Under the pieces are notes generated by a model. It saw only the letters and a list, made by a program, of their open reading frames with translations. It searched no databases and was not told where the DNA came from. The translations under genes and the position numbers were made by a program. 52,896 bases of DNA from Desulfurococcaceae archaeon (GTDB lineage: Archaea; Thermoproteota; Thermoprotei_A; Sulfolobales; NBVN01). Below are positions 15,759-31,156 of the stretch, piece after piece. The stretch covers positions 1 through 52,896 of the forward strand of contig JAJHQR010000003.1 in the NCBI GenBank assembly GCA_020833255.1. The letters are read 5' to 3'. Position 1 is the stretch's first letter, and each line of letters begins with the position of its first letter.

Positions 15759-17126
15759 GTGGGTGTTGGTATGAGCCCCACGTTAGCGGAAGCTTTGAAG
15801 TCTTTGAGGTCTGTTGCGGTGATCGGTGGTTCCCCGGTGAAGGGTAAGGTTGGTAACGTAGTGCTTGAGAATATCTTAAGGTATGGTTTTAGAGGGAGGG
15901 TTTACGTAGTTAACCCTAAATATGATTCTGTTCTAGGCGTGAAGTCTTATAAGAGTCTTAAGGAACTTCCCGAAATACCTGACGTGATCGTAGTCGCCGT
16001 CCCCGCTGACGCGGCGGCGCGAGTAGTTGAGGAGGCAGCCGTCATCGGGGTAAGGCTGGCTGTGGTGATCTCATCAGGTTTTAGCGAGGACGAGAGGTCT
16101 AACCTACAGAGAAGGCTGGAAAGCGTGGCCAAGTCCTGCGGTATCAGGATCGTAGGACCTAACTCTGCCGGGATAACCCTCAGTAACTCCCTTCTTCACG
16201 CGAGCATAGAGGTACTCCCTACTAGTGGTAGTGTCGGCGTAGCCGCGCAGAGCGGTGCCGTGGGCGGGGTGATAATCAGTGAGTTAAAGAGGTACTCATC
16301 AGGCGTTTCATTCTTTGTCAGTCTAGGTAACTGCGTTGATGTGTCTCCTGAGGAGGTGCTAGATTACGCTGCCGAGGACGAAGACACTGACGCGCTAATA
16401 CTCTATCTTGAGTGGTTACGTGACGGGAGAAAGTTCGTGGAGAACGGTCTTAAATTACTGAATGCTAGGAAGCCATTATGCGTTATTAAGGGCGGCGTAG
16501 GTAAGCAGAGTTCGGAAGCTGTCAGATCCCATACAGGGGGCTTAACACCTAGTTACGAGGTTTTTAAAGCCGCGGTCTCTAAGATCAGGGGTTACCTAGC
16601 TACGGAGATTCAAGACGCTGTGGAAGTTTGCGAGCTTGCTAGACGTTTAAAGGGCCTCAATCCTTCCAGAGTTATGATAGTCACCAACTCTGGCGGGTTA
16701 GGGGTGCTTACGGCGTCACACCTAGACTTGAGCGGTTTCGAAATTCCTAGGCCGCCGCCTAAGCTCGTTGAAGCCTTAAGTAGGCTAGGCTTAAGGAGCG
16801 CTACGTCTAACCCGCTAGACTTAGGTGGTGACACGTACATTGAGACCCTGACCGATGTTCTAGCGTTGAGAGAGCTTAAAGAATACTATGATTTAGCGGT
16901 ACTCGCTTACGTCCCGACAGCCGCTGAAACTTACGAGAAGATATCTAAAGTCATCGGGGAAAGACACAGGGATTTCGGCTTGCCCGTCATAGGGTACTTC
17001 GCCGGTGAGGGTTCTTACGAGGTAGTTGCCAGGGTTTCGAAGTTCATACCGGTAGTTTCTTCCTCTTGGATCTTAAGTAAAGCATTAATATTCATGAGAG
17101 GATTTAATATGGGTGTTGTGTCGTGA
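15759..17126 (+). CDS. Acyl-CoA synthetase (ADP-forming) alpha subunit
   Basis: CoA-binding N-domain, GPNS.G, QSGA, SLGN..D, phospho-His SHTG, TNSGG, NPLDL. Confidence 0.88.
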   Translation: MGVGMSPTLAEALKSLRSVAVIGGSPVKGKVGNVVLENILRYGFRGRVYVVNPKYDSVLGVKSYKSLKELPEIPDVIVVAVPADAAARVVEEAAVIGVRLAVVISSGFSEDERSNLQRRLESVAKSCGIRIVGPNSAGITLSNSLLHASIEVLPTSGSVGVAAQSGAVGGVIISELKRYSSGVSFFVSLGNCVDVSPEEVLDYAAEDEDTDALILYLEWLRDGRKFVENGLKLLNARKPLCVIKGGVGKQSSEAVRSHTGGLTPSYEVFKAAVSKIRGYLATEIQDAVEVCELARRLKGLNPSRVMIVTNSGGLGVLTASHLDLSGFEIPRPPPKLVEALSRLGLRSATSNPLDLGGDTYIETLTDVLALRELKEYYDLAVLAYVPTAAETYEKISKVIGERHRDFGLPVIGYFAGEGSYEVVARVSKFIPVVSSSWILSKALIFMRGFNMGVVS

Positions 17127-19009
17127 GTGACTTAAATCCGTTGAAAGCTCCTCCCGGTACGAGACTCGCTCTCATGGGTAACGAAGCTATAGCTAGAGGC
17201 GTTGTTGAGTCAGGTATTTACGTCGTGACGGGGTATCCGGGAACTCCTTCAAGCGAGGTGTTGATGACTATCCACGAGTATGGTAGGGATTTAGACATAT
17301 ACGCTGAGTGGGCCGTGAACGAGAGGGTAGCTTTCGAGGTCGCGTTAGGTGCTTCATTAGGTGGTGCCAGATCTCTCGTGACTATGAAGGGGCCGGGCAT
17401 TAACGTCGCTTCAGACCCTATCCTATCAGCAGCTTACTCAGGAATTAACGGGGGTCTCACAATACTGGTGGCTGACGACCCAGGACCCATAACAACGCAG
17501 ACAGAGCAAGACAGTAGGTGGTATGCCAAGCTCTCTAAACTGCCCATGCTATCCCCCTCATCACCTCAAGAAGCGAAGGACTTCACAGTAATATCTCAGC
17601 TTTTCAGCGAGGACATCATGTTGCCCGTCATACTGAGAACCACTACTAGGGTTAACCACGCGGTGAGCGAGGTCGTAACGGGTGAGGCAAGCCCTCCTAG
17701 AAAGTACCGCGAGTTTCGTAAAGATCCTCCCAGGTACGTGAGAGCTGGTATGGCGTGGAATTTAGAAAGGCATAAGTGGCTTAATAATCAGCTTAAGATC
17801 GCTGAAGACTTAGCGAGGAAGTACGGGTTGAATAAGGTATTGGGCGAGGGCTCTGCCTGCGTAGTTGTTGAGGGAGTGAGTTATAATTACGTGGCGGAAG
17901 TGTTGGATCGTGTTGAGTCATGGGAACGTAAAATTAAGGTCATTAAGGTAGATATGCTGTACCCGATCCCGAGAAATTTTCTGCTTAACTCTTTAAGTGG
18001 TTGCGGTAAGGTCTTAATAGTTGAGGAACTAGATCCTTACTTGGAAGAATCTGTTAAAGCGTTGCTACAAGAGCAGGACTTGAGGGTGGAGGTATTCGGT
18101 AAGTTAAACGGTTACCTACCTCTGGAAGGAGAGCTTAACACGCGTGTAGTGTCTCAAGCAATTTCAAGAGTTTTAGGTTACGACATCGTCAAGTCGTCTC
18201 ATAGTGAGGCGGTTAAGGGTTTCGACGTCCCCTCCCGACCACCCCCCTTATGTCCTGGCTGTCCTCACAGGAACTCGTATATTGCGTTGCTCCTCGGCAT
18301 AGCTAAAGCAGGTTATAAGCGTGATGAGATACCTATCTTCGGCGATATCGGTTGTTACGCGTTAAGCGTTAACCCCCCGTTAAACGCTATATGGACTGAA
18401 CACAGTATGGGAGCCAGCATATCGATGGCCATGGGTCTTAAGGTAGGGGGTTTCAGCAAACCAGTGGTAGCGACCATAGGGGACTCCACGTTCTTCCACG
18501 CAGGACTCCAGCCGTTGATTGAAGCAGTTAATAAGAGGGTGGACCTACTTGTTTTAGTACTTGATAACTCCGTCGTAGCTATGACGGGACATCAATCAAC
18601 CCCTGCCTGGGAAGTTACGGAGTCCGGTAGGGCGGCGAAACCCGTGGATATCGTTGAGTTACTGAAGTCTATCGGTGTTGACAACCTGGCGGTGGTTGAT
18701 CCTTTCAAAATCGATGAGATGATCAGTAAGGTGAGTGAGTTCATTAAGAAGCCTGGCGTTAACGTGATAGTGGCTAAAGCGCCTTGCGCCTTACTTAAGG
18801 TTAGGAGGGAGGGTGTGAGGAGTAGGTACACTGTCTTAAGCGATAAGTGCGTTAGTTGCTTAGCTTGCGTGAGGCTGACAGGCTGTCCGGCCCTATACAT
18901 AGGGGACGATAATAAAGTCAAGATCTCATTAGATGATTGTGTTGGGTGCGGTCTATGCGCTAGGTATTGCCCCTACAAGGCCATCGTTGAGGTGAAGCCT
19001 CATGAGTGA
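17123..19009 (+). CDS. iorA: Indolepyruvate:ferredoxin oxidoreductase alpha subunit
   Basis: GNEAIARG, GYPGTPSSE, RPP.LCPGCPH, GDIGCY, GDSTFFH, C-terminal 2x[4Fe-4S] domain. Confidence 0.95.
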   Translation: MSDLNPLKAPPGTRLALMGNEAIARGVVESGIYVVTGYPGTPSSEVLMTIHEYGRDLDIYAEWAVNERVAFEVALGASLGGARSLVTMKGPGINVASDPILSAAYSGINGGLTILVADDPGPITTQTEQDSRWYAKLSKLPMLSPSSPQEAKDFTVISQLFSEDIMLPVILRTTTRVNHAVSEVVTGEASPPRKYREFRKDPPRYVRAGMAWNLERHKWLNNQLKIAEDLARKYGLNKVLGEGSACVVVEGVSYNYVAEVLDRVESWERKIKVIKVDMLYPIPRNFLLNSLSGCGKVLIVEELDPYLEESVKALLQEQDLRVEVFGKLNGYLPLEGELNTRVVSQAISRVLGYDIVKSSHSEAVKGFDVPSRPPPLCPGCPHRNSYIALLLGIAKAGYKRDEIPIFGDIGCYALSVNPPLNAIWTEHSMGASISMAMGLKVGGFSKPVVATIGDSTFFHAGLQPLIEAVNKRVDLLVLVLDNSVVAMTGHQSTPAWEVTESGRAAKPVDIVELLKSIGVDNLAVVDPFKIDEMISKVSEFIKKPGVNVIVAKAPCALLKVRREGVRSRYTVLSDKCVSCLACVRLTGCPALYIGDDNKVKISLDDCVGCGLCARYCPYKAIVEVKPHE

Positions 19010-19616
19010 GGGTAGGGTAGTCAACATACTCATATCGTCCGTCGGTGGTCAGGGGGGATTAACGCTATCTAGGATTATAGCGGTTAGCGCTGTCGCTTCA
19101 GGGTATTACGTGAGGACCGGCGAGACTTTAGGCATGGCTCAGAGGTTCGGCAGCGTGGTTAGTTACGTAAGGGTGGGTATTGGTAAGAAGGTGTATTCAC
19201 CGCTCTTCGATCTTAACGAGGCTCATTACATCGTGTGCATGGAGGTAATAGAGTGTGCGAGAACTTTGAAGTACTTACGTGATGACGGTGTATTAATATT
19301 AGATGACGTCATAAAACCGCCGACATCGATGAGTTTAGCGGGTAAGAACTCGTCCTTGAAAGAGCAGGTAATTAAGCAAATCCTGGAGGTAGTGAAGCCT
19401 GAGAGGGTTGTCGTGGTTCCGGCTAGAGACATTGCTTCAGGTCTAGGTAGTTCTAGAGGAGCTAACATGGTTCTGTTTGGGGTTCTAAACAGGATCTCGG
19501 GATTATTCGATAACGGGAAGGTAGAGGAAGCTATATCAAGCTTTTTCGAGGGCAGGGCTAGAGAGCTCTCTTTAAGAGCGTATAGGGAGGGATATAAATA
19601 TTTGGATAAGCGGTAA
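19002..19616 (+). CDS. iorB: Indolepyruvate:ferredoxin oxidoreductase beta subunit
   Basis: VGGQG, ET.GMAQRFGSV, NMVLFG; overlaps the iorA stop. Confidence 0.92.
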   Translation: MSEGRVVNILISSVGGQGGLTLSRIIAVSAVASGYYVRTGETLGMAQRFGSVVSYVRVGIGKKVYSPLFDLNEAHYIVCMEVIECARTLKYLRDDGVLILDDVIKPPTSMSLAGKNSSLKEQVIKQILEVVKPERVVVVPARDIASGLGSSRGANMVLFGVLNRISGLFDNGKVEEAISSFFEGRARELSLRAYREGYKYLDKR

Positions 19617-19659
19617 CCACTTAAAACTTAGCGAGAGCTTTAGTAAGGGTTGGGGAAGC

Positions 19660-20328
19660 TTGCTCTGCAAGATAAGCGTAACAGCTTTCGACATGGACGG
19701 GGTCTTAACTAAGTGGAGGTCTTCCTGGAGAGCACTACACGAGTACTTCGGCTCAATAAGCTTAATAAGCGAGAACGACGACGCGGAAAGATTCTTGAGA
19801 GGGGAGATAACTTATGAAGAGTGGATGCGGAGAGACTTAGAAGCTATAATCAAAGCTTTCGGGAGACCTCCGTCTAGGGAAGAAATAATTAAAGCGTTTT
19901 CCACGTACGAGTTAGTTGAAGGCGCTAAAGAATTAATTAACTTCTTGAAAGAGAGGGGGGTGTACACAGCGATTATTAGCGGGGGTATAGATCTGCTTGC
20001 CGAGAAGGTTAGGGAGGAGCTAGGGATTGACGTCGCGTTCGCTAATAAGTTAGTCTTTGATGAGAGAGGGTATTTAATACCGAAGGGTATCGAGGTAGTT
20101 AATCCACTCAAGAAAAGCGAGATCCTGAAGAACCTCTCGAGACAACTTAAGGTGCCGCTCAGCGAGTTCATGTACGTAGGCGATACTGAGTGGGATTTTG
20201 AGGCTCTCAACATCGTGGGTTTCCCGGTTCTCCTCAACTACGGTGAGGTAAGGCTTCCGGCAAAGCATAAGTACATAGTGGTTAACTCTCTTCACGATAT
20301 AGTAGAGTTTTTATCCAAGTGTTTGTAA
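19660..20328 (+). CDS. HAD-IB phosphatase, phosphoserine phosphatase-like
   Basis: FDMDGVL, ISGG, K, VGD...D motifs. Confidence 0.85.
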   Translation: MLCKISVTAFDMDGVLTKWRSSWRALHEYFGSISLISENDDAERFLRGEITYEEWMRRDLEAIIKAFGRPPSREEIIKAFSTYELVEGAKELINFLKERGVYTAIISGGIDLLAEKVREELGIDVAFANKLVFDERGYLIPKGIEVVNPLKKSEILKNLSRQLKVPLSEFMYVGDTEWDFEALNIVGFPVLLNYGEVRLPAKHKYIVVNSLHDIVEFLSKCL

Positions 20329-20480
20329 CCGAAGGCGGGGCTGTTTTGTTTTTCATAATCATTTGCAAACGCTCATATTCATTGACGTCTGAGATCTCTT
20401 AATGCTATTAAGTATGCTGACCACGATTTCGTCAGAATCCTCGGTAAGGTTTATTAAGCTTTAGCTTATGAATTAATTTG

Positions 20481-20656
20481 GTGACCCCGGGTTTCCGAGA
20501 TCCGTAGAGGCTGTGAACCCTAGGCGACTAGCGGTGAGTCACTGCGGTGAGGGGGCTCGGGGAGACCGTTGAGAAGCAGATGGTGGGGAACAAACAAATG
20601 AACCACTATCTGCTGAGAAACGGTGCAGAATCCCGTCATTCACGGCTGGGAATCAA
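20481..20656 (+). mobile_element. IS200/IS605 right-end / omega-RNA-like remnant with no TnpB ORF and its own TATA box
   Basis: GAAT (20628-20631), hairpin cccgtcattcacggctggg, then TCAA (20653-20656), the IS200/IS605 right-end layout; internal stem gcagatggtgg/ccactatctgc; TTTATTAA at 20450-20457. Confidence 0.6.
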
Positions 20657-21535
20657 TCAGTGCTGTGTTTGTAGTACGTATCTGTTTATCTCTTCCTCGA
20701 TTATGTCCATCAATCTTTGAGGAATCTCTTCAGGCCCTCTTGACGTTTGAAGCAATAACTTCATAGATAACGTAATCCTCTCTTTAAGTAATTCATCAAG
20801 TAAGCCGAGTTTAAGGACCTGTTCCTGAGCTATGTGCTCGAACTCTCTACGAGCTCTTTCAGCCTGGAGCGGCAATCCTAAACTCTTGGAGTAAAAGTGT
20901 ATATACGCAATCAAGGTTAGGTCTACGAAGTATGAGGGATCGAAATACTTGATTGTTTCCCTTAAAAGAGAGCTGAAATACGCTGTTAAGAACTTCACGT
21001 AATTCTTCAAAGAATTCACTAGTGACAACACGCTCCTCCTCTCCACGGAACCCGCGAAAGTTTTTACATATTTCGCTAAAGCCTCGCTGAACTCGTTCAT
21101 CCCCAACGACGAGAGCACGTCATTGAAATCCTGTAATTCCTTTATTAGCTCCCTGTAAAATTCCCATTGCGGGACGTTACCCTTAGTAAGTGTTTGAAGA
21201 ATCTTAAAAGCCGGCTGGATCAGGAAAATGTAGTTGTGGAGATTCCTCATGATAGATTCTCTAATGTTCTGCTGCTCTTTCGTGAAGTAGTAAAGAAACG
21301 TGAAGTACTCTACGTCCTTCCTCACTAGCTCGTTAATCAACATATTCACTACGTCACCGTCCACAGTTTTTATCTCGAGCTTGCCGTCAGGAAGTCTCGT
21401 TACCTCTTTTACGTTCTTGAGAGGTATTCTCTTCGTCTCACCCAACATCTCAAGATTCTCTACCACTAGTACAGCGTCACTAGTTCTCACAACGCATTTA
21501 TACTCGGTTTTATTTTTGTAACATCTAGTAGACAA
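20657..21535 (-). CDS. Hypothetical protein with N-terminal PH-like beta domain and helical C-domain
   Basis: Beta-rich VVRTSDAVLVV...KRIPLKNVKEVTRL..KLEIKT..G pattern typical of PH folds; last gene of a coupled operon. Confidence 0.65.
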   Translation of the reverse strand: MSTRCYKNKTEYKCVVRTSDAVLVVENLEMLGETKRIPLKNVKEVTRLPDGKLEIKTVDGDVVNMLINELVRKDVEYFTFLYYFTKEQQNIRESIMRNLHNYIFLIQPAFKILQTLTKGNVPQWEFYRELIKELQDFNDVLSSLGMNEFSEALAKYVKTFAGSVERRSVLSLVNSLKNYVKFLTAYFSSLLRETIKYFDPSYFVDLTLIAYIHFYSKSLGLPLQAERARREFEHIAQEQVLKLGLLDELLKERITLSMKLLLQTSRGPEEIPQRLMDIIEEEINRYVLQTQH

Positions 21536-21537
21536 CC

Positions 21538-23751
21538 TTAACCCCCTCCCTCTTTAAGACGTACTACGCCTTCATAAACTTCTATGTCGCCCCTGCTCAC
21601 CAAGAGTACCCAAATGAGCTGTACTGAGACGTCCGTAGTGAAGGGTAATTCGTTTACGTTGATGGATTTCTTCTCCGTGAGTTCTTGCATTACGTAATCA
21701 CTGAATAAAGCTAGGTGTCTGAATAAATGATTAAGGATTACCAGCCTCTCCAGAACGACCACAGCGTTTTCAAGTATGGTGGGTAACTCTAGGAGTAAGT
21801 TTCCAAGACCCTCCACGAGGTTTGCAGGAGATCTTATGCTGTCTTTGCTCGCCTTAGATTTAATAAGATCTACGTTTCTCTTCATCCTACCTAAAAGCAG
21901 ATCCTCTATTTCCGCGTTCTCTCCGTAGATAGCTCTTATCTTCAGACTTACCTTCCCTAGGTCTGAGTTGAGTGTGTTAATTAATTTATCTAAGATTACC
22001 AATAAGTTGTTGTAGATTGATGAGTATCTCCTCAAGTATGAGAGTACTTCTAACTCGCTAATGATTCCGGACACTTCGTCTAGCTCGCCGTATAGCTCCT
22101 CTAAAATAGCCGGGGATTCAAAACCCTCTAAAGCCTTTTCCTTCAGTTTCCTTAGCTTGTCACCCACCAACCCTTTAATCTCTATGTATTTGCTATGTAA
22201 CTCCCTAAGCTTGGGCAGGGTTGTGTTGATTATGTTGTCGTAGCTCTCAAGCATTAAACGTAAGTCATCTAGTAAAGACTTACTAGTAGCGCAATCTATT
22301 TTCTCTATATTATTAAGCTCTACTGGGGGAGGGGGTAGGTGTTCTGAAACAGCTATGTAGGCGTTTAAGACCAGGTTTTTAAGCGTGGAGCAACTCTCTC
22401 TTAACGTGTTGGCCACTGAACTTACGTATTGCGGTATCTCGCCAACATCCCCCACCTCCTCGAATTTCTGAGAACCTCCCCTAAAGCGCGTGCTGTAGGG
22501 GGTTGCTAGAACTAGAGCTACTATCTTGGAGTGAGTTATTAATGCGTTAGAATACATCGACTTCATGCGCTCCGAGATCTCACCCAGCTCCTTTCTCGTA
22601 TTCTCTAGAACGTCGTTAATTAGCTGAAGCCTACCCACAGAGACTAGCTTCTTCGAGAGGTTACTCCTAGAGATTATCAGCTTATTCCTCGCATTATTTA
22701 ATCTTCTCTCTACATCCCTAAGCGTTTCCTCAGACCATAGACCAGTCTTACTCATCTCATTATAAACTACTTCAAGACCGCGTAGCTCCCGCTCCAAGAC
22801 TTCTAGGAGGGAGCTCAGGCGCTTCCTCCCCTCCGACGTCATTCTCAAATACAACGTCGTCGTAGTTGTTGAAGAGATTATTATAGTTACTAAGAACGTT
22901 GATGTCAGGTTATACCCTAGGAATGCGTAAAACGGGGTTAAGAGGATGACAGACATTGATACGTAGAAGAGCCCAACGAATGCTAAGGTGGTTATGAAGT
23001 ATCTCACGAAGAGCAAGATTAGGTTGACGGTCTCCCTACTCTCGCCTACTATACCGTAGGAGATTATGTTTATGAAGGAAGCTATGGTAAAGCTAACTAA
23101 GAGAGATACGTAAACGTACGTAAATTCTGTTTGGGACCCTGCGTTTATGTGAGGTACTCCAGTGAGGTCAGGTAACACGTAGTAAAGACCTAGGAAGACT
23201 AGGAGTGAGAGTGAGAGGCTCATGAAGCCTGAGAAATACGTTTTTAAATTATTAACGACTATGACGGAAAGAGAGAGTAGCCATATAAACTCGTAGACGC
23301 TGAAGCTAATTCCCCACAAGCCATCACTTAACGTGAACGTTATGAAGAAGAATATTGGTAGGTGAACACATAATTCCCAGACATTAAGTTTTGAGACTAG
23401 ATTCAACGCTACCACGGCCGATAGTAAGAGTGTTGAGAAGAGTACGTAGAGACTCCCCAACAGCGACAACTTAATGCTCGGTAGTGAGAAAACCACGTTG
23501 ATGAGCAGTATGTAGCTCACGAAGAGCGGGGAGAAAACGAGTGAGTCGTAGTAGGGCAGGTCTTTAGAGTAGATCAGTGGAGCGATCATGGTTAACGTTA
23601 CGAGAGCGCCGGCAAGCGGTATCCCTATAGGTTCCCTCATTAATCCTAGCGCGTAACCAGTTAGCACTATCCACAAAGAAATCAGTAGCGATACCCAAAT
23701 AACCTCAAGTCTAGATCTCTTAGCTTTATCTAACTCTGACTTACTCATCAA
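21538..23751 (-). CDS. Hypothetical polytopic membrane protein with long coiled coil and possible C-terminal winged helix
   Basis: About 9-10 hydrophobic segments in the first ~300 aa, then heptad-rich helices, ending ..KKSINVNELPF...GDIEVYEGVVRL. Confidence 0.75.
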   Translation of the reverse strand: MMSKSELDKAKRSRLEVIWVSLLISLWIVLTGYALGLMREPIGIPLAGALVTLTMIAPLIYSKDLPYYDSLVFSPLFVSYILLINVVFSLPSIKLSLLGSLYVLFSTLLLSAVVALNLVSKLNVWELCVHLPIFFFITFTLSDGLWGISFSVYEFIWLLSLSVIVVNNLKTYFSGFMSLSLSLLVFLGLYYVLPDLTGVPHINAGSQTEFTYVYVSLLVSFTIASFINIISYGIVGESRETVNLILLFVRYFITTLAFVGLFYVSMSVILLTPFYAFLGYNLTSTFLVTIIISSTTTTTLYLRMTSEGRKRLSSLLEVLERELRGLEVVYNEMSKTGLWSEETLRDVERRLNNARNKLIISRSNLSKKLVSVGRLQLINDVLENTRKELGEISERMKSMYSNALITHSKIVALVLATPYSTRFRGGSQKFEEVGDVGEIPQYVSSVANTLRESCSTLKNLVLNAYIAVSEHLPPPPVELNNIEKIDCATSKSLLDDLRLMLESYDNIINTTLPKLRELHSKYIEIKGLVGDKLRKLKEKALEGFESPAILEELYGELDEVSGIISELEVLSYLRRYSSIYNNLLVILDKLINTLNSDLGKVSLKIRAIYGENAEIEDLLLGRMKRNVDLIKSKASKDSIRSPANLVEGLGNLLLELPTILENAVVVLERLVILNHLFRHLALFSDYVMQELTEKKSINVNELPFTTDVSVQLIWVLLVSRGDIEVYEGVVRLKEGGG

Positions 23752-24827
23752 GGCCCCCTCTCAGTCCTACTCAAGAATTCCCTAGTCAATTTTATTAACG
23801 GGATTAAGACTCTTAAATCTCTTTCCTCCTCACTTAATACTGACATAGCATCCCACACATCTCTCGACAACTTCAGCATCAAATCATCACTACTCTCACT
23901 GATGAGGACACGTATACGATCTTCTGACGTGATTTTAGGGGTGAAGACTTTGTAAACTGTCCACCCGCAGGCCTTGACCATGTCGTTAATATTGACTTGA
24001 TTAAGTAGCTCCGCATTACCTTCTAGGTATGCGTAACCCATAGTCCCGGCAAACGTGGTTCCCCAGGTGAGAAACTTAGCTAGTTGCGAAGCCCCGGCTA
24101 AGTCCTTTATTAGTAGGGAGGCTTCTTCAAGACTCAACAACGATATGAAGTACAGGTGTCTCATCTCTCTAGTGTCAATCAATAAGATATCTTCACCCAA
24201 GCTTTCCGAGTAGAGTCTTAAACCCCAGTTCAAGAGCTCATTAATTGTCTGGCTCTCGAAGTATTTATAGAACCTGTCAATCCTTAACAAGCTCACCTTA
24301 CTGGCTAATCTCTCCTTCAAGACCTTAGCTAAGAACGTGACTAAGTTAAACCTATTAATGAGGGTGAGCTCCCTATCCACTATAATCAAAATCTCCGCTC
24401 TACCGGCACCATTCTTGAGAGACTTGAAGACTTCAAGAGCTTTGTAGGCTATGGATAAATCCTTAGCCTGGGTCGAGGAAAGCAGAAACAACTTGTCAAC
24501 GTCCTCCGTTATTAGGGAGGAAAGCACCTCCTCCTCGAAAGTTGTTTCTTGAGGACCTCCCTCCTTCAAGTAACTTACCCACACACTGTACCGGTGGGCT
24601 TCGTTCGAAGGTCTTGAAACAACGTAAGTATTAGGCTTAAGGAATTCCAGGGATTTCTCAGAACCTTCCTTAACCTTAATGATTAGGTACCCCTTATACG
24701 CCAACACCCCACTCAGCATTTGCTCTATAGACTGCGGGGGAGTCAAGAACACAGCTACCTTATTATGATCTATGAAGTCCAGAGAACTCACGAAGCTCTC
24801 GAATACGTTCATAGACCATATACTCAC
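23748..24827 (-). CDS. Hypothetical protein, putative degenerate tubulin/FtsZ-superfamily fold
   Basis: Rossmann-like beta/alpha order and motif correspondences with tubulin by eye; no GGGTG(S/T)G. The CDS is well supported; the fold is inference. Confidence 0.55.
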   Translation of the reverse strand: MSIWSMNVFESFVSSLDFIDHNKVAVFLTPPQSIEQMLSGVLAYKGYLIIKVKEGSEKSLEFLKPNTYVVSRPSNEAHRYSVWVSYLKEGGPQETTFEEEVLSSLITEDVDKLFLLSSTQAKDLSIAYKALEVFKSLKNGAGRAEILIIVDRELTLINRFNLVTFLAKVLKERLASKVSLLRIDRFYKYFESQTINELLNWGLRLYSESLGEDILLIDTREMRHLYFISLLSLEEASLLIKDLAGASQLAKFLTWGTTFAGTMGYAYLEGNAELLNQVNINDMVKACGWTVYKVFTPKITSEDRIRVLISESSDDLMLKLSRDVWDAMSVLSEEERDLRVLIPLIKLTREFLSRTERGP

Positions 24828-24878
24828 TAAAACTCACCAACCCTACTAATATAACTATACCTATCTATAAATCTTTCT

Positions 24879-25105
24879 GTGAGCGGGTGGGGTTTCCAGC
24901 GTTTGGCTGGAGCTTTACACCTCCAGCTTCATTTGCTGGTTTGGGGCTCACGACACCCTCATCCCGCAGAGCTCATTACCCTGCGGGCTATGTTTATGCA
25001 CACATGCACGAACTTCCTTCCGCAAAAAGAGCATCCCAAAACTTAATTCAGTAGTGGGCTAAAAGTCTTTCCCGCCACCCTCACCGTGAACAGCAAGGTT
25101 TTCAG
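24879..25105 (-). mobile_element. Internally deleted IS200/IS605 (tnpB) miniature element
   Basis: Minus strand: left-end-like hairpin ccttgctg-ttca-cggtgagg, promoter-like tract and ATG (25034), joined to a TnpB C-terminal-like stretch INIARRVMSS...PANEAGGVKLQPNAGNP, ending GAAA..TCAC. Confidence 0.6.
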
Positions 25106-25230: not shown

Positions 25231-26508
25231 TTAGGTTCCCGTGCAAACCTCCTCGACGGGTTCCTTAGCAAGCCTTTCTTTAAGAGATATTATTAATTTT
25301 AGTGCTTCAACGAACACCTCTACCTCCTCTAACGTGTTGTATATGTAATAACTCGCTCTAACAGACCCGTTAAATCCTAGCCTGTAGTGGAGTGGGTGTG
25401 CGCAGTGACCGCCCGTTCTCACAGCTATCCCGAATAGATCTAGTGCCTTGCCGACGGTATGGTAGTGTAGGTCTTTAACGTTGAAAGCCACTAGCCCTGT
25501 TCTTGCGTGAGGATCTTTAGGGCCTAGAATCACTAACTCATCCCCTAGTTCCATAAACCTCTTCAGAGTCTCACTTACTAAGGCTATGTCATGTTCCCTC
25601 ACGTTCTCCATCCCTAACCTCATTAAGTATTTAGCGGCCTCCGCCAGCCCTATCATGCCAGCTATGTTAGGTGTTCCGGCCACGAACCTCCAGGGCAGGT
25701 CATGCCATACTACCGAATCTAGCGTCACGTCTTTTATTGTGTCACCGCCGACCCTGAAAGGCTTCATGGATTCCAGGACGTCTTTCCTACCCCATAAAAC
25801 GCCTGTTCCGGTCGGTCCGAGCATCTTATGACCGCTGAAAGCGATGAAATCTATTTCTAGGTCTTTAACGTTTGTGGGTACGTGTGGCACGTACTGAGCC
25901 CCGTCCCCGACAGCTATGGCTCCTACCGAGTGAGCTAGCCTTGCAATCCTCTTCACGTCATTTATTGTTCCGACGACGTTGCTCGCCATCGGGAAAGCAA
26001 CTACCTTAGTTCTCTCGCTAATCGCTTTCTCTAGCTCTTCGTAATCAAGCGTTCCATCTTCTTTGACGCCCACGTACTTAACCTTAGCGCCCGTTTTCTC
26101 CGCGACAGCTCTCCACGGAAGCATGTTACTGTGGTGATCCATGACCGTGACCACCACCTCATCACCGGGCTTCAGGTTATCCAGTCCCCAACCCCAAGCA
26201 ACGAGGTTTAACCCGTCCGTAGTGTTTGACACGTCGATTATCTCCTCCCACGAATAAGCGTTGATGAACTTAGCTAAGACTTCATGAGCTTCCTCGTAAG
26301 CCTGGCTAGCTTCCTGAGAAAGCGTGTGAAAACCTCTGTGGACGTTGGCGTTGTAGTTAAAGTAGAACTTAACTATAGCTGCTACGACCTGCCTCGGCTT
26401 CTGAGTTGTTGCAGCGTTATCCAGGTATATGAGCCTCCTTCCGTTAACCTTGCGCTTAAGGATCGGGAAGTCCTCCCTAATCTTCTCAACATCTAACGTG
26501 CTGAACAC
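25231..26508 (-). CDS. sufS: Cysteine desulfurase, group II (SufS)
   Basis: YLDNAATTQKP, ANVHRG, FSGHKMLGP, RTGGHCAHP. Confidence 0.93.
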   Translation of the reverse strand: MFSTLDVEKIREDFPILKRKVNGRRLIYLDNAATTQKPRQVVAAIVKFYFNYNANVHRGFHTLSQEASQAYEEAHEVLAKFINAYSWEEIIDVSNTTDGLNLVAWGWGLDNLKPGDEVVVTVMDHHSNMLPWRAVAEKTGAKVKYVGVKEDGTLDYEELEKAISERTKVVAFPMASNVVGTINDVKRIARLAHSVGAIAVGDGAQYVPHVPTNVKDLEIDFIAFSGHKMLGPTGTGVLWGRKDVLESMKPFRVGGDTIKDVTLDSVVWHDLPWRFVAGTPNIAGMIGLAEAAKYLMRLGMENVREHDIALVSETLKRFMELGDELVILGPKDPHARTGLVAFNVKDLHYHTVGKALDLFGIAVRTGGHCAHPLHYRLGFNGSVRASYYIYNTLEEVEVFVEALKLIISLKERLAKEPVEEVCTGT

Positions 26509-26527
26509 CCCTGCCAGAACAGACCTC

Positions 26528-27070
26528 TCAACACGCTCCCCCCTTCAACAACTTGCTTAAGAGGCTTATGAGTGTGTCCTCCTTACTCAACGGTGGCTTA
26601 ACAGGCTCCCCCCTCAGGTATTTGCTGACTCTCTCAGGGAAGGATGGAACGACGGTCTTCAAATCTAAATCGCTTAAGACGCCGTCGTATTTCTCCTTAT
26701 AGACCACCTTACCATCCATCCAACTCAGGAGGATAGTCGTAGGCGATGAGTGAACGTCGAAATAAGTGAAAGTAGCTGAAGCAACTAAAGACTCGCAATC
26801 TCTAGCAAACCAATTACATAAGACTATGTAGAAATTAAACTCGTTATTCTCGTTGCTTAAGCTCCTAACGAAAGGAAACCAGTATATGTCGTACCTCCTG
26901 CACGCACTACACTTAGCGTTGTCGAAGTACATCACCGCGTACTTATCTTTAGGTATGAAAGGATCTAATCCCTCCACGTCTAGATAAACCCACACATCGT
27001 CTTCCCTCAAGTACTTGTACACGCCGTGCTTGCTTTCAGAGCTTATCTCCTTAAACCTCAAGCCACTCAC
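26528..27070 (-). CDS. Thioredoxin-fold protein
   Basis: YFDNAKCSAC (CxxC), cis-Pro region FDVHSSPT, extra CNWFARDC. Confidence 0.75.
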   Translation of the reverse strand: MSGLRFKEISSESKHGVYKYLREDDVWVYLDVEGLDPFIPKDKYAVMYFDNAKCSACRRYDIYWFPFVRSLSNENNEFNFYIVLCNWFARDCESLVASATFTYFDVHSSPTTILLSWMDGKVVYKEKYDGVLSDLDLKTVVPSFPERVSKYLRGEPVKPPLSKEDTLISLLSKLLKGGAC

Positions 27071-27144
27071 TCAATTCACCAAGAATAATACCGTGTAGAG
27101 ACTAAATTAAAAACGAATTAAGGTAATTAACTCGGTGTCTAATA

Positions 27145-28635
27145 TTGAGTAAGATAGATAGGTTACTTCAGGAATACCCCCCGAGATACGGCCCTGAATG
27201 GGGTAGTGGGGGGATCTTCGGGCTTAAGTACTTTAAGGGAGTGCTCTACTACACGCTCGCTTTCGAAGCTTCAGCGTACTTTGTGGATGATGAGATAATG
27301 GAGTATAGGTTTAGTGAGTTAGGCCCCGGCCCCGCCTCAGGAGGGGACACGTATAACGCGGTAGACGTGGTTGATGATAAGATATATTTCGGGGGCTGGG
27401 TTCATAACCCCGCGGTCTTTAAAGGTAAGAAGGGTTTTGCCGGTGAGATAGATTTTAGGAATAAGTATAGTCACGTACACGAGTACGACGTAAAGGAGAG
27501 GAGGGTGAAGCTACTTTGGAAAGACAGTATCCACGACGAGTTCAGGTGGGCTGGGGAAGTGTCTCAAATAATCTACGACCCGGTAAAAGACGTTCTGCTG
27601 ATAGGTAGGTCGGACGGCATGGAGAATTTAGGTGTTTACGAGCTGAGCAGGGATGGGAGGAACTTCATCAAGTTAAGTGATGTGCCGGCTCTTAAGGGTT
27701 CTCTCTACCTTGATTACGCGTGTTTCGATATGCAGCCTGACTGGGTGATAGGGGTTGACGGCGTTCAGTGCCTGGACTTAGTTAGGAGGGTGTGGGTAAG
27801 GTACGAGGTAAGGGACTGGGCCGGGTCTTCTTTAGATGGTTACGGGGTTCAGCGCAGGACGTCTGGCTACGCGGTAAGCGCTTACACCAGGTACTGGCAC
27901 TTCATGAGGGGAGGTGTTTTAGTAGGGAATCCTGTAGAACCTGAGGTCGAAAAACCTGTTTTCGTAAGGTTATTTGATTTCGGCATGAACGTTTACGCAC
28001 CACACAGAAGTAACGCGCTCAACTTGGGCGGAGGGATACTAGCTGTGTTTAATGCTGGTACGCACGGGTTCATACACCCGCATGAGGGCAACCCTGAAGA
28101 AGTTGGTCTCAGAAGGTATTTCAACACGATAGCCGCGCCTACGACGTTAGTTTACATAACGCCTCCTCAAGCAAGGATATTAGCTGTTTTCGGCGCCAGG
28201 ATAACTAGCATGACTAAAGCGGGTAGTAGGGTGCTCCTCGCATATAACACCACCCCGAACCTCGGCGGTAAAGACTCAACCCCTATAGATGGTGGTGTGA
28301 GGGGGATTATGTCAGTGGATGAGTATTCCTTAATAAGCAGTAGCAACCCACCACTAACTATCAGGGTTCACGGCTGGGCGGTAGGCGATTCCTGCTTCGG
28401 GGGTGTGCCGCTCACCGGATATAAAGAAGCTGAGTTAGTCGTGAGGAGCAGTAAACCTAATGAGATAATCATTAACTCTTACGACATCGGTTTGCCACCG
28501 CTAAATTACGGCTCGGAGAAGCATAAGTTGAGTGAGGGGGTGAACAGGATAGATCTGAGAGGTTACAGGAACATAGTTTCTTTCAAGCTGGAGAAGCTGG
28601 ATGCGGACGCGTTAATTAGCATCTACTTGAGCTAA
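27145..28635 (+). CDS. Conserved archaeal protein, DUF2139-like (beta-rich)
   Basis: N-terminal YPPRYGPEWGSGGIFGL recalled as DUF2139. Confidence 0.65.
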   Translation: MSKIDRLLQEYPPRYGPEWGSGGIFGLKYFKGVLYYTLAFEASAYFVDDEIMEYRFSELGPGPASGGDTYNAVDVVDDKIYFGGWVHNPAVFKGKKGFAGEIDFRNKYSHVHEYDVKERRVKLLWKDSIHDEFRWAGEVSQIIYDPVKDVLLIGRSDGMENLGVYELSRDGRNFIKLSDVPALKGSLYLDYACFDMQPDWVIGVDGVQCLDLVRRVWVRYEVRDWAGSSLDGYGVQRRTSGYAVSAYTRYWHFMRGGVLVGNPVEPEVEKPVFVRLFDFGMNVYAPHRSNALNLGGGILAVFNAGTHGFIHPHEGNPEEVGLRRYFNTIAAPTTLVYITPPQARILAVFGARITSMTKAGSRVLLAYNTTPNLGGKDSTPIDGGVRGIMSVDEYSLISSSNPPLTIRVHGWAVGDSCFGGVPLTGYKEAELVVRSSKPNEIIINSYDIGLPPLNYGSEKHKLSEGVNRIDLRGYRNIVSFKLEKLDADALISIYLS

Positions 28636-28683
28636 CCAACGCTTCAGAAATAGTTAATTTAATTCTCGCGAAGTATTTACTCA

Positions 28684-29832
28684 GTGATGAGCGGCATGGA
28701 TTTGAAGACTAGGTTGAGAGAGCTCTTCGTTAAGAATCCTGAAACGCCTGAGATAGTTAGGTTGATAAAGGAACTAGCTCGAAGACTGGGTGGTGAGGTA
28801 GTTAAGATAATGGATTTCTGCGGTACGCATGAATGGACCATAACTAGTTACGGTTTAAGGAGCTTAATGCCGGAAAACGTGGAATTGATCGCAGGTCCTG
28901 GCTGCCCCGTGTGCGTCACCCCGGGACATTACGTTGAGGGTTTGGTTAAGCTAGCTCTTGAAGGGGTTAATGTCTTCACGTATGGCGACGCGTTTAAGTT
29001 GCCTTCAGTTAAGGGAGCCAAGCCTAGGAGTCTGGCTGAGGCTAAGATGCTCGGAGGTAAAGTTACGGTGGTTTACAGTTTCTTAGACGCGATTAAAGAA
29101 GCTGGTAGGAGGGGGAGTGAGGAACACGTCTTTTTCGCTGTAGGGTTTGAGACCACTATGCCAGCCGTAGCTGAGCCCGTATACAACATGGCAATCCCTA
29201 AAAACCTGACTATCTTGAGTGCTCATAGACTCACGCCACCGATCATGAGGTACCTCCTAGAGAACGTGCGTGAGGTAAGGGTGGACGGCATCATAGCGCC
29301 CGGACATGTTTCAGCCGTGATAGGGTATAAGGAGTGGGAATTCCTAGTGAGAGACTTCAACATACCTACCGTGGTTTCCGGGTTTGAACCCGTGGACGTT
29401 CTCCTAGCCATACTCGCGGTACTTAAGTGTAAGGTTGAGGGGAAGCCCTCCTTAATTAACGAATATGTCCGGGTTGTTAAGCCGGACGGCAACCTTAGAG
29501 CTAAGAAGATAATCAACGAGGTCTTCAAGACCGTTGACTCATACTGGAGGGGCATAGGTGTAGTCCCTTCTAGCGGTGCTTTACTTAGAGAGAGGTTCGC
29601 GGATTTCGATGCTTCGTTGAGGTATGGGATAGTGGAGAGACCTGACTTCAGCGATGTCTTGCCTGGGTGTAGGTGCGGTGAGGTAACGCTAGGTAAGGTA
29701 AAGCCTACTTCATGTCCGCTCTTCATGAAGGCCTGCACCCCTGAAAACCCTTACGGTCCCTGCATGGTCAGCTCAGAAGGTACTTGCAGGATATGGGCTG
29801 AGAATCTCCACACCATACTGACAGAATTGTGA
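28684..29832 (+). CDS. hypD: Hydrogenase maturation protein HypD
   Basis: CGTHE, GPGCPVC, GFETT, PGHVS, GPCMVSSEG.C. Confidence 0.96.
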   Translation: MMSGMDLKTRLRELFVKNPETPEIVRLIKELARRLGGEVVKIMDFCGTHEWTITSYGLRSLMPENVELIAGPGCPVCVTPGHYVEGLVKLALEGVNVFTYGDAFKLPSVKGAKPRSLAEAKMLGGKVTVVYSFLDAIKEAGRRGSEEHVFFAVGFETTMPAVAEPVYNMAIPKNLTILSAHRLTPPIMRYLLENVREVRVDGIIAPGHVSAVIGYKEWEFLVRDFNIPTVVSGFEPVDVLLAILAVLKCKVEGKPSLINEYVRVVKPDGNLRAKKIINEVFKTVDSYWRGIGVVPSSGALLRERFADFDASLRYGIVERPDFSDVLPGCRCGEVTLGKVKPTSCPLFMKACTPENPYGPCMVSSEGTCRIWAENLHTILTEL

Positions 29833-29851
29833 GGCAGGTGTTTACTTTCGA

Positions 29852-31156
29852 ATGGGTTCGGGAGGAGAGGTTTCCAGGATAGCTTTCCCGATACTTTTGG
29901 GTATGGTACCGGACTCGGTAATAAGTCTTATCGCGATGATCACTGCGTCGAGGATCGGTACGGAGGCTCTAGCCGGTACCGGGCTTGCGTCATATCTATT
30001 CATGATAATAAACGCCGTGACTTCGGTCTTCATGGTTGGTTTGCTGGTAATCACTTCCCAGGCTTACGGGGGTAACGATTTAAGACTGATCGAGAGAGCT
30101 TTCGGCGAGACGCTCACGGCTTCAGTTATTTCCTCGCTAGCCGTGGTCGCTACCTCACCGCTCTGGCTACCTATCTATACAAGCTTGCTCTCAGGGGGTC
30201 AGGAATTAGTTAATGAGGTGGCAGTAACTTACTTGAGTCTGAGAGTGTTTTCCATACCTGCATTGATGCTTAACTCCGTGATAGCTACCTTATTCAGAGC
30301 TGTTGAGAAGCCGTGGCCCCCCACGTACTCTTCTATCAGCATAGGCGTGGCTAGTTCTGTACTCATACCGTCACTCGCGTTAGGTTACCTAGGGTTACCG
30401 AGGTTAGGGGTTTCCGGTATGGGCTTGGCTTCCACGATTTCACAGTATGTGGGCTTGCTCGTATACGTTTTCCTAAGACCCCCGGTTAAGGTAGGGTTCT
30501 ACACACCCTCAAAAATAACCGCTAAGATTTTAGCGGTAGGGGTTCCTGCATCCGCTGAGAGATTCGTTGGAAGCGCAGGGCATAACATATACATAAACGC
30601 TGTCGCTAGGTCAGGTGTTGAAGCTTTAGCAGCACATAACATAGGGTTGAGCGTGGAGAACCTGATCATAGGTCCTGTCTTCGCGGTCAACGTAGCTGCT
30701 TCCGCTAAGACAGGGCACCACGTAGGTTCTAACAACATCGGAGATTTGGATAGGGTGGTTAAGGAAGCCCTGAAAATAGGTGTTGTATGGATGTTTATAG
30801 CTACCTTAATACTCGTTGGTCTATCACCCTTCGTCGGCAAGTTCTTCACGGATGATAGGGAGGTGGCTGAGCTAGTTATGGTTTACCTAATAATGGCCGC
30901 TATCTCGGAAATCGGGCTTGGAGCGTCGCAAGCACTTTACGGCGTGTTTAGAGGTGCTGGAAGTACTTGGGTACCGCTCGCGATAAGTTCTACGACGATA
31001 CTGATTTTCAGGGCGGCACTAGCTCAAATCCTCCAACCAATCTACGGGATCTACAGTGTTTGGTTCACTCAAATAACTGATATGTATAGTCGGTTCCTCA
31101 TATCTTACTTAATATACGTTAAGCTCAAGTCGAGACTCCTCGTTAAAGTGATCTAA
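29852..31156 (+). CDS. MATE family efflux transporter
   Basis: About 12 TM helices; GTEALAG, LG..G.G.AS, ALAAH, FRGAG. Confidence 0.85.
   Translation: MGSGGEVSRIAFPILLGMVPDSVISLIAMITASRIGTEALAGTGLASYLFMIINAVTSVFMVGLLVITSQAYGGNDLRLIERAFGETLTASVISSLAVVATSPLWLPIYTSLLSGGQELVNEVAVTYLSLRVFSIPALMLNSVIATLFRAVEKPWPPTYSSISIGVASSVLIPSLALGYLGLPRLGVSGMGLASTISQYVGLLVYVFLRPPVKVGFYTPSKITAKILAVGVPASAERFVGSAGHNIYINAVARSGVEALAAHNIGLSVENLIIGPVFAVNVAASAKTGHHVGSNNIGDLDRVVKEALKIGVVWMFIATLILVGLSPFVGKFFTDDREVAELVMVYLIMAAISEIGLGASQALYGVFRGAGSTWVPLAISSTTILIFRAALAQILQPIYGIYSVWFTQITDMYSRFLISYLIYVKLKSRLLVKVI

Follow-up and report, generated by a model that had tools for sequence, protein, structure and literature searches.

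The window analysed here, a 52,896-nucleotide stretch of DNA from a hot-spring Desulfurococcaceae archaeon (positions 1 to 52,896 of contig JAJHQR010000003.1, assembly GCA_020833255.1), carries on its minus strand three contiguous genes that we refer to as A, B and C. Gene A (23748..24827) encodes a 359-amino-acid (aa) protein that, judging from its open reading frame (ORF), family alignments, an AlphaFold2 model, structure matches and ratios of non-synonymous to synonymous substitution rates (dN/dS), is predicted to have the tubulin fold and lacks the GTP-binding motifs. Gene B (21538..23751) codes for a 737-aa membrane protein and gene C (20657..21535) for a 292-aa soluble protein; all features described below for the three genes are on the minus strand.

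The start codon of gene A is GTG (24827-24825), and in its orthologues an ATG stands at the corresponding site. In all 10 pairs among five gene A orthologues, which share 70–94% amino-acid identity, dN/dS falls between 0.083 and 0.125, and gene A is therefore a real protein-coding gene under purifying selection. The ORF had been singled out in an earlier sequence-only reading of this DNA, and its extent is confirmed.

Searches of protein family and structure databases with gene A gave no Pfam family at E ≤ 1, a sole NCBIfam match to an N-acetyltransferase with 14.9 bits against a cut-off of 194, nothing meaningful and no tubulin among PDB sequences, by either phmmer or profile, and nothing usable in the ESM Atlas. 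None of the 40 family members matched any of the Pfam tubulin/FtsZ models (E ≤ 0.1). The family is small: of 5.8 billion sequences it accounts for 12 clusters at 90% identity, and of 1.84 billion sequences for nine representatives at E ≤ 0.001. Profile searches of whole genomes added far more divergent members, down to 13–17% identity. One public contig of 1164 nt encodes a 193-aa protein (P0013) that shares 90% identity with the gene A N-terminus over its first 94 residues and is unrelated after that; the contig is a short assembly and probably chimeric or frameshifted.

With a profile made from the 40-row alignment, gene A was found once per genome in 37 of the 52 genomes of one family-level clade of the Sulfolobales/Desulfurococcaceae type, including 21 of the 23 clade genomes with a completeness of 90% or more, and in 11 of the 13 genera. 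The only extra match was a 67-aa contig-end fragment in genome G002. There were no matches to a 19-row profile in the 273 genomes of 12 other families of the order, and none in the 399 genomes outside the family in a phylum-wide sample. Gene A is a near-universal single-copy gene of this one hyperthermophilic clade.

To our knowledge, neither FtsZ nor tubulin is present in Thermoprotei of the Sulfolobales/Desulfurococcales type, which serve as the textbook case of this absence among archaea. The source genome, which is 99.1% complete, has no match to PF00091 at E ≤ 1, and 13 of 14 control genomes were positive in the same search; in the phylum sample, 59 of 151 genomes have the domain, and most of these belong to other classes. 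The Snf7 model of Pfam gave one sub-threshold match in the source genome and was likewise below threshold in a Sulfolobus control, which says little on the Cdv system. A survey of the superfamily by Pfam domains also notes classes of Crenarchaeota without any FtsZ (PMC9871819).

Predicted fold of the gene A product

The final AlphaFold2 model of gene A was built from the 40-row alignment (38 unique sequences) without templates. It has a predicted local distance difference test (pLDDT) score of 87.7 and a predicted TM-score (pTM) of 0.88, with the five models spanning pLDDT values from 85.9 to 87.7. Averaged over ten-residue blocks, pLDDT is mostly 82–96 and dips to 68–69 at residues 91–100 and 211–220; confidence is otherwise lower only before residue 21 and over the last nine residues. 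The elements of the model come in the order H0, S1-H1-S2, a hairpin, H3-S4-H4-S5-H5-S6, a long helix (residues 192–208) and a variable loop, followed by S7-H9-S8-H10-S9-S10 and three C-terminal helices, where the names S1–S10, H1–H12 and T1–T7 are what we take to be their equivalents in the nomenclature of the tubulin/FtsZ structure literature. As modelled, the elements succeed one another as in the tubulin/FtsZ topology, and the C-terminal helices form a long extension that resembles tubulin H11/H12.

The model thus contains the two-domain tubulin/FtsZ fold, with a Rossmann-like N-terminal domain, a core helix H7 and the S7–S10 domain. The N-terminal domain, as delimited by the secondary structure of the model and the aligned ranges, comprises residues 23–182 (24282..24761); its seven strands, including the hairpin at residues 59–73, are the counterpart of the tubulin nucleotide-binding domain S1–S6. 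The model and the alignment place the H7 equivalent at residues 192–208 (24204..24254), with a nearly invariant W201. The C-terminal (intermediate) domain, S7-H9-S8-H10-S9-S10, occupies residues 225–312 (23892..24155), and the FtsZ, CetZ and tubulin matches all extend through it. The C-terminal helices at residues 314–356 (23760..23888) resemble H11/H12 of tubulins proper, with which they align, and have no aligned counterpart in FtsZ.

In a Foldseek search of the PDB with this model, all 45 matches listed were FtsZ, CetZ, TubZ or tubulin, with E values from 5e-12; the TMq values were 0.58–0.62 for tubulins and 0.45–0.52 for FtsZ and CetZ. A VIA-align scan, which is independent of Foldseek, compared the model with 48,161 representative chains and scored them as Z. 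The highest scores went to Asgard AtubB (Z 20.4; root-mean-square deviation 4.3 over 318 aligned residues, model residues 22–359), OdinTubulin (Z 20.1, 326 residues aligned), BtubA and beta-tubulin (both Z 19.8), alpha-tubulin (Z 19.6) and gamma-tubulin (Z 18.9 and 17.9), followed by CetZ (Z 16.2 and 16.0, model residues 22–333), FtsZ (Z 13.7, model residues 22–314), TubZ (Z 12.9–13.2) and PhuZ (Z 11.2–11.6). The first unrelated chains were Rossmann enzymes of the QDPR/SDR type with Z 9.5. All tubulin-superfamily matches start at model residue 20–22, and the matches span 254–327 residues including the C-terminal domain; residues 22–359 of the model align onto tubulin residues 4–422. In a viral structure library, the best 10 rows were aligned over the full length, and the five of these 10 that carry names are all phage FtsZ/cell-division, tubulin-like or PhuZ proteins, with lower TMq values of 0.37–0.48. 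A viral origin of gene A was considered and rejected, as this library gave only more distant phage tubulins.

The higher scores of tubulins proper come partly from helices 314–356, which FtsZ lacks, and the likeness of the gene A model to tubulins proper is a structural resemblance that by itself is no proof of closer descent. Taken over both domains, the confident model and the structure matches make it very probable that gene A encodes a tubulin-fold protein. This supports the sequence-only reading, which had recognized a tubulin/FtsZ fold by matching short segments of the ORF to beta-tubulin by eye; the top matches are indeed tubulins rather than other Rossmann-like folds, and a C-terminal domain is both predicted and aligned. 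Each of the eight segments lies on the model element that comes at the matching point in the order of tubulin elements, a correspondence shown per element and not per residue. Thus, DKLFLLSS (residues 111–118) falls on strand 112–118 (S4), TQAKD (119–123) on the S4–H4 junction in the place of tubulin GGGTGSG, EILIIVD (145–151) on strand 143–150 (S5), TLINRFNLVTFLAKVL (155–170) on helix 156–171 (T5/H5) and KVSLLRIDRF (177–186) on strand 177–182 (S6). Further along, TINELL (194–199) is within helix 192–208 (H7), RHLYFISL (223–230) on strand 225–234 (S7), GYAYLEG (264–270) on strand 263–270 (S8) and RIRVLIS (304–310) on strand 304–312, the last one.

A prediction of a complex of two copies of gene A returned a score of 0.00 and a mark of 0.42 ('no answer'), which counts neither way on self-association.

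GTP-binding loops and sequence conservation

The loops that hold the nucleotide in tubulins and FtsZ were compared across the 38 unique sequences of the family. The T1-equivalent loop of gene A, residues 27–34 (FLTPPQSI; 24726..24749) between S1 and H1, has no glycine, and the same stretch contains no glycine in 33 of the 38 sequences and a single one in the other five. At the T4-equivalent junction, residues 116–124 (LSSTQAKDL; 24456..24482), which is the site of GGGTG(S/T)G in tubulin/FtsZ, 32 sequences have no glycine, four have one and two have two. No GGGTG-like run was found in any of the 38 sequences, whereas the GGGTG motif is invariant in the controls, namely in 19 of 19 FtsZ and in 19 artubulin-like proteins. 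The T7-equivalent loop, residues 209–224 (24156..24203), where pLDDT dips to 68, varies within the family in both length and sequence; its D218-T-R-E221 motif shows conservation in the Zestosphaera-type subgroup alone. Thus, the loss of the glycine-rich T4 loop, which the sequence-only reading had pointed out for the single ORF, turns out to be family-wide, and the whole family is devoid of the canonical phosphate-binding apparatus. Judged by these sequences, canonical GTP binding has probably been lost in the family and, because the apparatus is absent from all its members, the gene A product would not be expected to bind a nucleotide.

The best-conserved columns of the family are W83, N161 at the start of H5, L131 and Y128 in H4, E311 and those of its best-conserved block, at residues ~240–270 of the C-terminal domain (FKDLxGxxxFxKFxxWG...YxxIEG).

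Profile–profile comparison with hhalign gave a probability of 0.25% for the gene A family profile against a profile of 19 FtsZ sequences from Thermoproteota, and 0.12% against a profile of 19 artubulin sequences from Nitrosopumilaceae-type genomes. The positive control, FtsZ against artubulin, itself reached only 20% (E 0.0011), so the two null results are not counted against homology. Moreover, the control alignment is anchored on GGGTG, and since this motif is lost in the gene A family, the test is weak exactly where it would be needed.

The A-B-C operon and its surroundings

The order A-B-C was examined at 13 loci, namely in the window and in 12 of the 29 other matching genomes then known, which together represent 10 genera. 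In 12 of these loci the three genes are contiguous on one strand; the thirteenth reaches the contig end after B. In the window, the start of gene B overlaps the stop of gene A by 4 nt and gene C begins 2 nt after B; A-B-C is a translationally coupled operon in which gene A always comes first. Across the loci, B has ~680–737 aa, of which the first ~300 contain 6–10 predicted membrane helices, and C is a soluble protein of ~281–300 aa. In one locus (L051), B is present by position and is too divergent to be matched by the hidden Markov model.

The B protein of the window has about nine predicted membrane helices within residues ~1–300 (22852-23751), followed by a helical/coiled-coil domain of ~435 aa (21541-22851), and carries invariant C454, C487 and P703. 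It belongs to no Pfam or NCBIfam family and an Atlas search returned nothing; in a profile search of the PDB, its C-terminal ~435 residues matched only coiled coils and designed helical bundles. Weak matches to ATG17_like in five of the 13 B homologues (best E 6.4e-4) were read as coiled-coil composition and this assignment was rejected. The C protein begins with a small part rich in beta structure, where C5 and C14 are invariant, and continues as a helical domain with an invariant W124; it has no Pfam or NCBIfam family and no meaningful PDB profile match. Both partners thus have an invariant pair of cysteines, C5/C14 in C and C454/C487 in B, and no other residues are conserved to that degree. 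The sequences suggest that these pairs may be metal sites or structural disulfides of the kind common in hyperthermophile cytoplasm.

Genes for a HAD hydrolase and an indolepyruvate oxidoreductase adjoin the operon across genera, and this conserved chromosomal synteny argues against A-B-C being a mobile island. The neighbours in the window (17123-20328 and 25231-31156) are ordinary core genes by their translations; they presumably encode indolepyruvate:ferredoxin oxidoreductase-like alpha and beta subunits, a HAD-type hydrolase, a SufS-like cysteine desulfurase, a HypD-like protein and a MATE-like transporter. The G+C content of the operon, 43.6–43.9% (positions 20000–24000 of the window), is below the 47–50% of its flanks, and two other 2-kb blocks, at 14–16 kb and 32–34 kb, dip likewise. 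In one public RNA library, near-identical contigs of 151 nt cover parts of A, B and C, and one of them bridges the A/B junction. Of the sampled words, 17% occurred in this run, and the contigs cover only parts of the operon, the gaps between them carrying no meaning; because DNA carry-over into the library is possible, this is a weak hint of expression.

The putative promoter and 5' leader of the operon (24828..24878) were read from the sequence. There is a TATA-like TTTATAGA at 24864-24871, about 40 nt upstream of the start of gene A, and GGTGAG at 24833-24838, 6 nt before its GTG. These ~50 nt, which we infer to act as the promoter, are the only part of the upstream spacer that is conserved in relatives (83–96% over 26–52 nt).

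Directly upstream of the putative promoter is a ~210-nt GC-rich and strongly self-paired element (24870-25090), with RNA fold z values of -3.62 (minus strand) and -2.55 (plus strand). The element occurs at five places in the genome with 79–100% identity and is absent from this site in relatives whose gene A is 92–94% identical; RNA-library contigs that are 90–95% alike to it continue into unlike sequence. An RNA gene or riboswitch upstream of the operon was considered and rejected, as there is no Rfam match and the element is a dispersed repeat that relatives lack at this position. It looks like a dispersed repeat, similar to miniature inverted-repeat transposable elements, or a small-RNA family.

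Relation to known tubulin-superfamily proteins and interpretation

Compared with tubulins proper (eukaryotic alpha-, beta- and gamma-tubulins, Asgard AtubA/B, OdinTubulin and BtubA/B), the gene A product is ~60–90 residues shorter, shares 8–12% identity with them in structural alignments and lacks GGGTGSG, the glycine-rich T1, the conserved acidic motif of T7 and a Pfam Tubulin match. It is also encoded by a single gene, not by an A/B pair, in an operon that includes a membrane protein. CetZ, the archaeal tubulin-like proteins involved in cell shape, keep the GTP-binding motifs, polymerize with GTP, are euryarchaeal and match PF00091, whereas the gene A family has none of their sequence features. 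The alignment with FtsZ ends at residue 314 of the gene A model, before the C-terminal helices; moreover, FtsZ has an invariant GGGTGTG, the source genome of gene A has no FtsZ match, and profile–profile similarity is absent.

Like gene A, the artubulins of Nitrososphaeria, a class in the same GTDB phylum, are tubulin-proper-like proteins of TACK archaea, but they retain GGGTG, match Pfam Tubulin with E 6e-17 and have no detectable profile similarity to the gene A family. We found artubulin-type proteins of 461–464 aa in Nitrosopumilaceae-type genomes (L088:679-2064, L089:696-2084 and L090:897-2291). Among PDB sequences they are matched best by Asgard AtubA/B and gamma-tubulin, and they have 161 clusters at E ≤ 1e-5; their source labels vary between 'cell division protein FtsZ' and 'tubulin gamma'.

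In Makarova and Koonin (2010; PMC2875224), which names GGGTG(S/T)G as the signature of the superfamily, FtsZl-1 and FtsZl-2 are divergent branches of the FtsZ/tubulin superfamily with a role in membrane remodelling predicted from genome context, and one crenarchaeal (Sulfolobus) FtsZl member is fused to transmembrane helices. These proteins were found through, and retain, the GTP-binding loop, and either have a coiled coil in the same protein or are missing the C-terminal domain. Gene A, in contrast, encodes both domains without the loop, and the coiled coil and the membrane helices are in a separate neighbour protein. The septin pseudoGTPases (PMC10731463) show how a cytoskeletal GTPase family can degenerate to nucleotide-free subunits that are still used in assembly; septins, however, are eukaryotic and have the unrelated P-loop GTPase fold, so the likeness is one of analogy only. 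A 2026 paper on Asgard tubulins (PMC13394414) gives close tubulin homologues as known only in Odinarchaeia and two Lokiarchaeia. In the open-access literature searched, we found no description of a whole tubulin-fold family lacking all the GTP loops, and the comparison points to the gene A family being an undescribed, nucleotide-free branch of the tubulin family. Because the sequence features that define the canonical tubulin/FtsZ GTPases were looked for and are absent, we file it as a GTP-motif-less family with the tubulin fold rather than as a member of those GTPases.

All this makes it likely that the gene A product is a structural homologue of tubulin that has diverged very far, and most likely a nucleotide-independent pseudo-GTPase with the tubulin fold: the glycine-rich T1 and T4 loops are absent in every member of the family and T7 is not conserved. 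How such a protein might work together with its partners is a more tentative matter, with slightly less than even odds. We propose that A would be a structural subunit that works independently of GTP at the cytoplasmic face of the membrane, where the long coiled coil of the polytopic protein B would tether it, and that C, with its two cysteines, would serve as an adaptor or regulator. A, B and C together might then form a static membrane-associated scaffold and not a GTP-driven dynamic filament.

Several points weigh against this interpretation. The fold of gene A rests on prediction, and the first AlphaFold2 model, for which 12 close sequences were used, was of poor quality (pLDDT 55.9; below 50 for residues 213–359); Foldseek matches to it were led by flavodoxin-like NQO1/azoreductases, FtsZ coming 35th and CetZ 49th, and both the model and its list were set aside because of this poor quality. 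The homology of gene A to tubulin/FtsZ is without support at the sequence level, where the hhalign test was a weak one. The T1, T4 and T7 equivalences were set by the order of secondary-structure elements, not by superposition of residues. Physical contact of A with B or C would follow only from our reading of the operon, and neither partner has a recognizable family. Finally, N161 at the start of T5/H5, W83 and S104-L-I-T, all near the former pocket, are strongly conserved, and gene A may have a non-canonical ligand site.

The last point is central to the alternative that fares best, although we consider it unlikely, namely that the gene A product has the tubulin fold and has kept, in a remodelled pocket, the ability to bind a nucleotide or another small ligand, and that it may still be a regulated, perhaps polymerizing, cytomotive filament. 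At 4.15 bits each, N161 and W83 are the two best-conserved columns of the family; S104, T107 and D109 are conserved as well, and the elements that carry these residues are the ones lining the pocket in tubulins. Polymerization is also an ancient capacity of tubulin-family proteins. However, every nucleotide-binding member known to us holds the phosphates with glycine-rich T1 and T4 loops, and in the gene A family these loops are short and mostly or wholly glycine-free, whereas the T7-equivalent loop, which would complete the active site of the neighbouring subunit, is not constant in either length or sequence.

A nucleotide-independent protein remains our preferred interpretation, and a more far-reaching version of it, for which the chances are slimmer than for a remodelled pocket, would make the gene A family a GTPase-dead offshoot of an ancient archaeal lineage of tubulins proper, with H11/H12 in place, that predated or paralleled the Asgard and eukaryotic tubulins. 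Proteins of the tubulin type, and not of the FtsZ type, would then have been present in the TACK ancestor, and a single clade of Thermoprotei would have made the fold into a nucleotide-free, possibly filament-forming subunit of a membrane skeleton with a dedicated polytopic coiled-coil anchor.

It appears quite improbable that the likeness to tubulin was produced spuriously by the structure prediction and that gene A encodes another two-domain protein of the Rossmann- or flavodoxin-like kind, such as an enzyme or a ligand-binding protein. The lack of sequence or profile similarity to any tubulin/FtsZ family and the NQO1/azoreductase-type folds that came first with the shallow-alignment model would fit such a protein, but the deep-alignment model is confident in both domains without templates, more than 10 Z units separate the tubulins (about 20) from the best non-tubulin fold (9.5), the matches include a C-terminal domain that Rossmann enzymes lack, and three structure searches (Foldseek against the PDB, VIA-align and the viral library) agree. 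We give equally little credence to gene A being a recent, fast-evolving plasmid- or virus-derived relative of the TubZ/PhuZ type that was domesticated by the clade and is not an old archaeal lineage: its narrow distribution (one family-level clade and none of 399 other genomes sampled), fast divergence (13–17% identity within the family), the lower GC content of the operon and the phage tubulins among the structure matches speak for such an origin, whereas the conserved chromosomal position beside genes for a HAD hydrolase and an indolepyruvate oxidoreductase in different genera, the single-copy, near-universal presence in the clade and the absence of mobile-element genes next to the operon speak against it.

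Surveys that start from Pfam domains or from the GGGTG motif, as those in PMC9871819 and PMC2875224 do, cannot see members of this kind. Should the interpretation of gene A as a nucleotide-independent tubulin-fold protein be true, the gene A family would represent a natural experiment on what the tubulin fold does without a nucleotide, be it as a static polymer, an adaptor or a membrane scaffold, and the fixed three-gene operon makes the system testable by supplying the partners of gene A. A tubulin-proper-like fold that is invisible at the sequence level in Thermoprotei would then widen the known spread of this fold and add a data point on the origin of tubulin.

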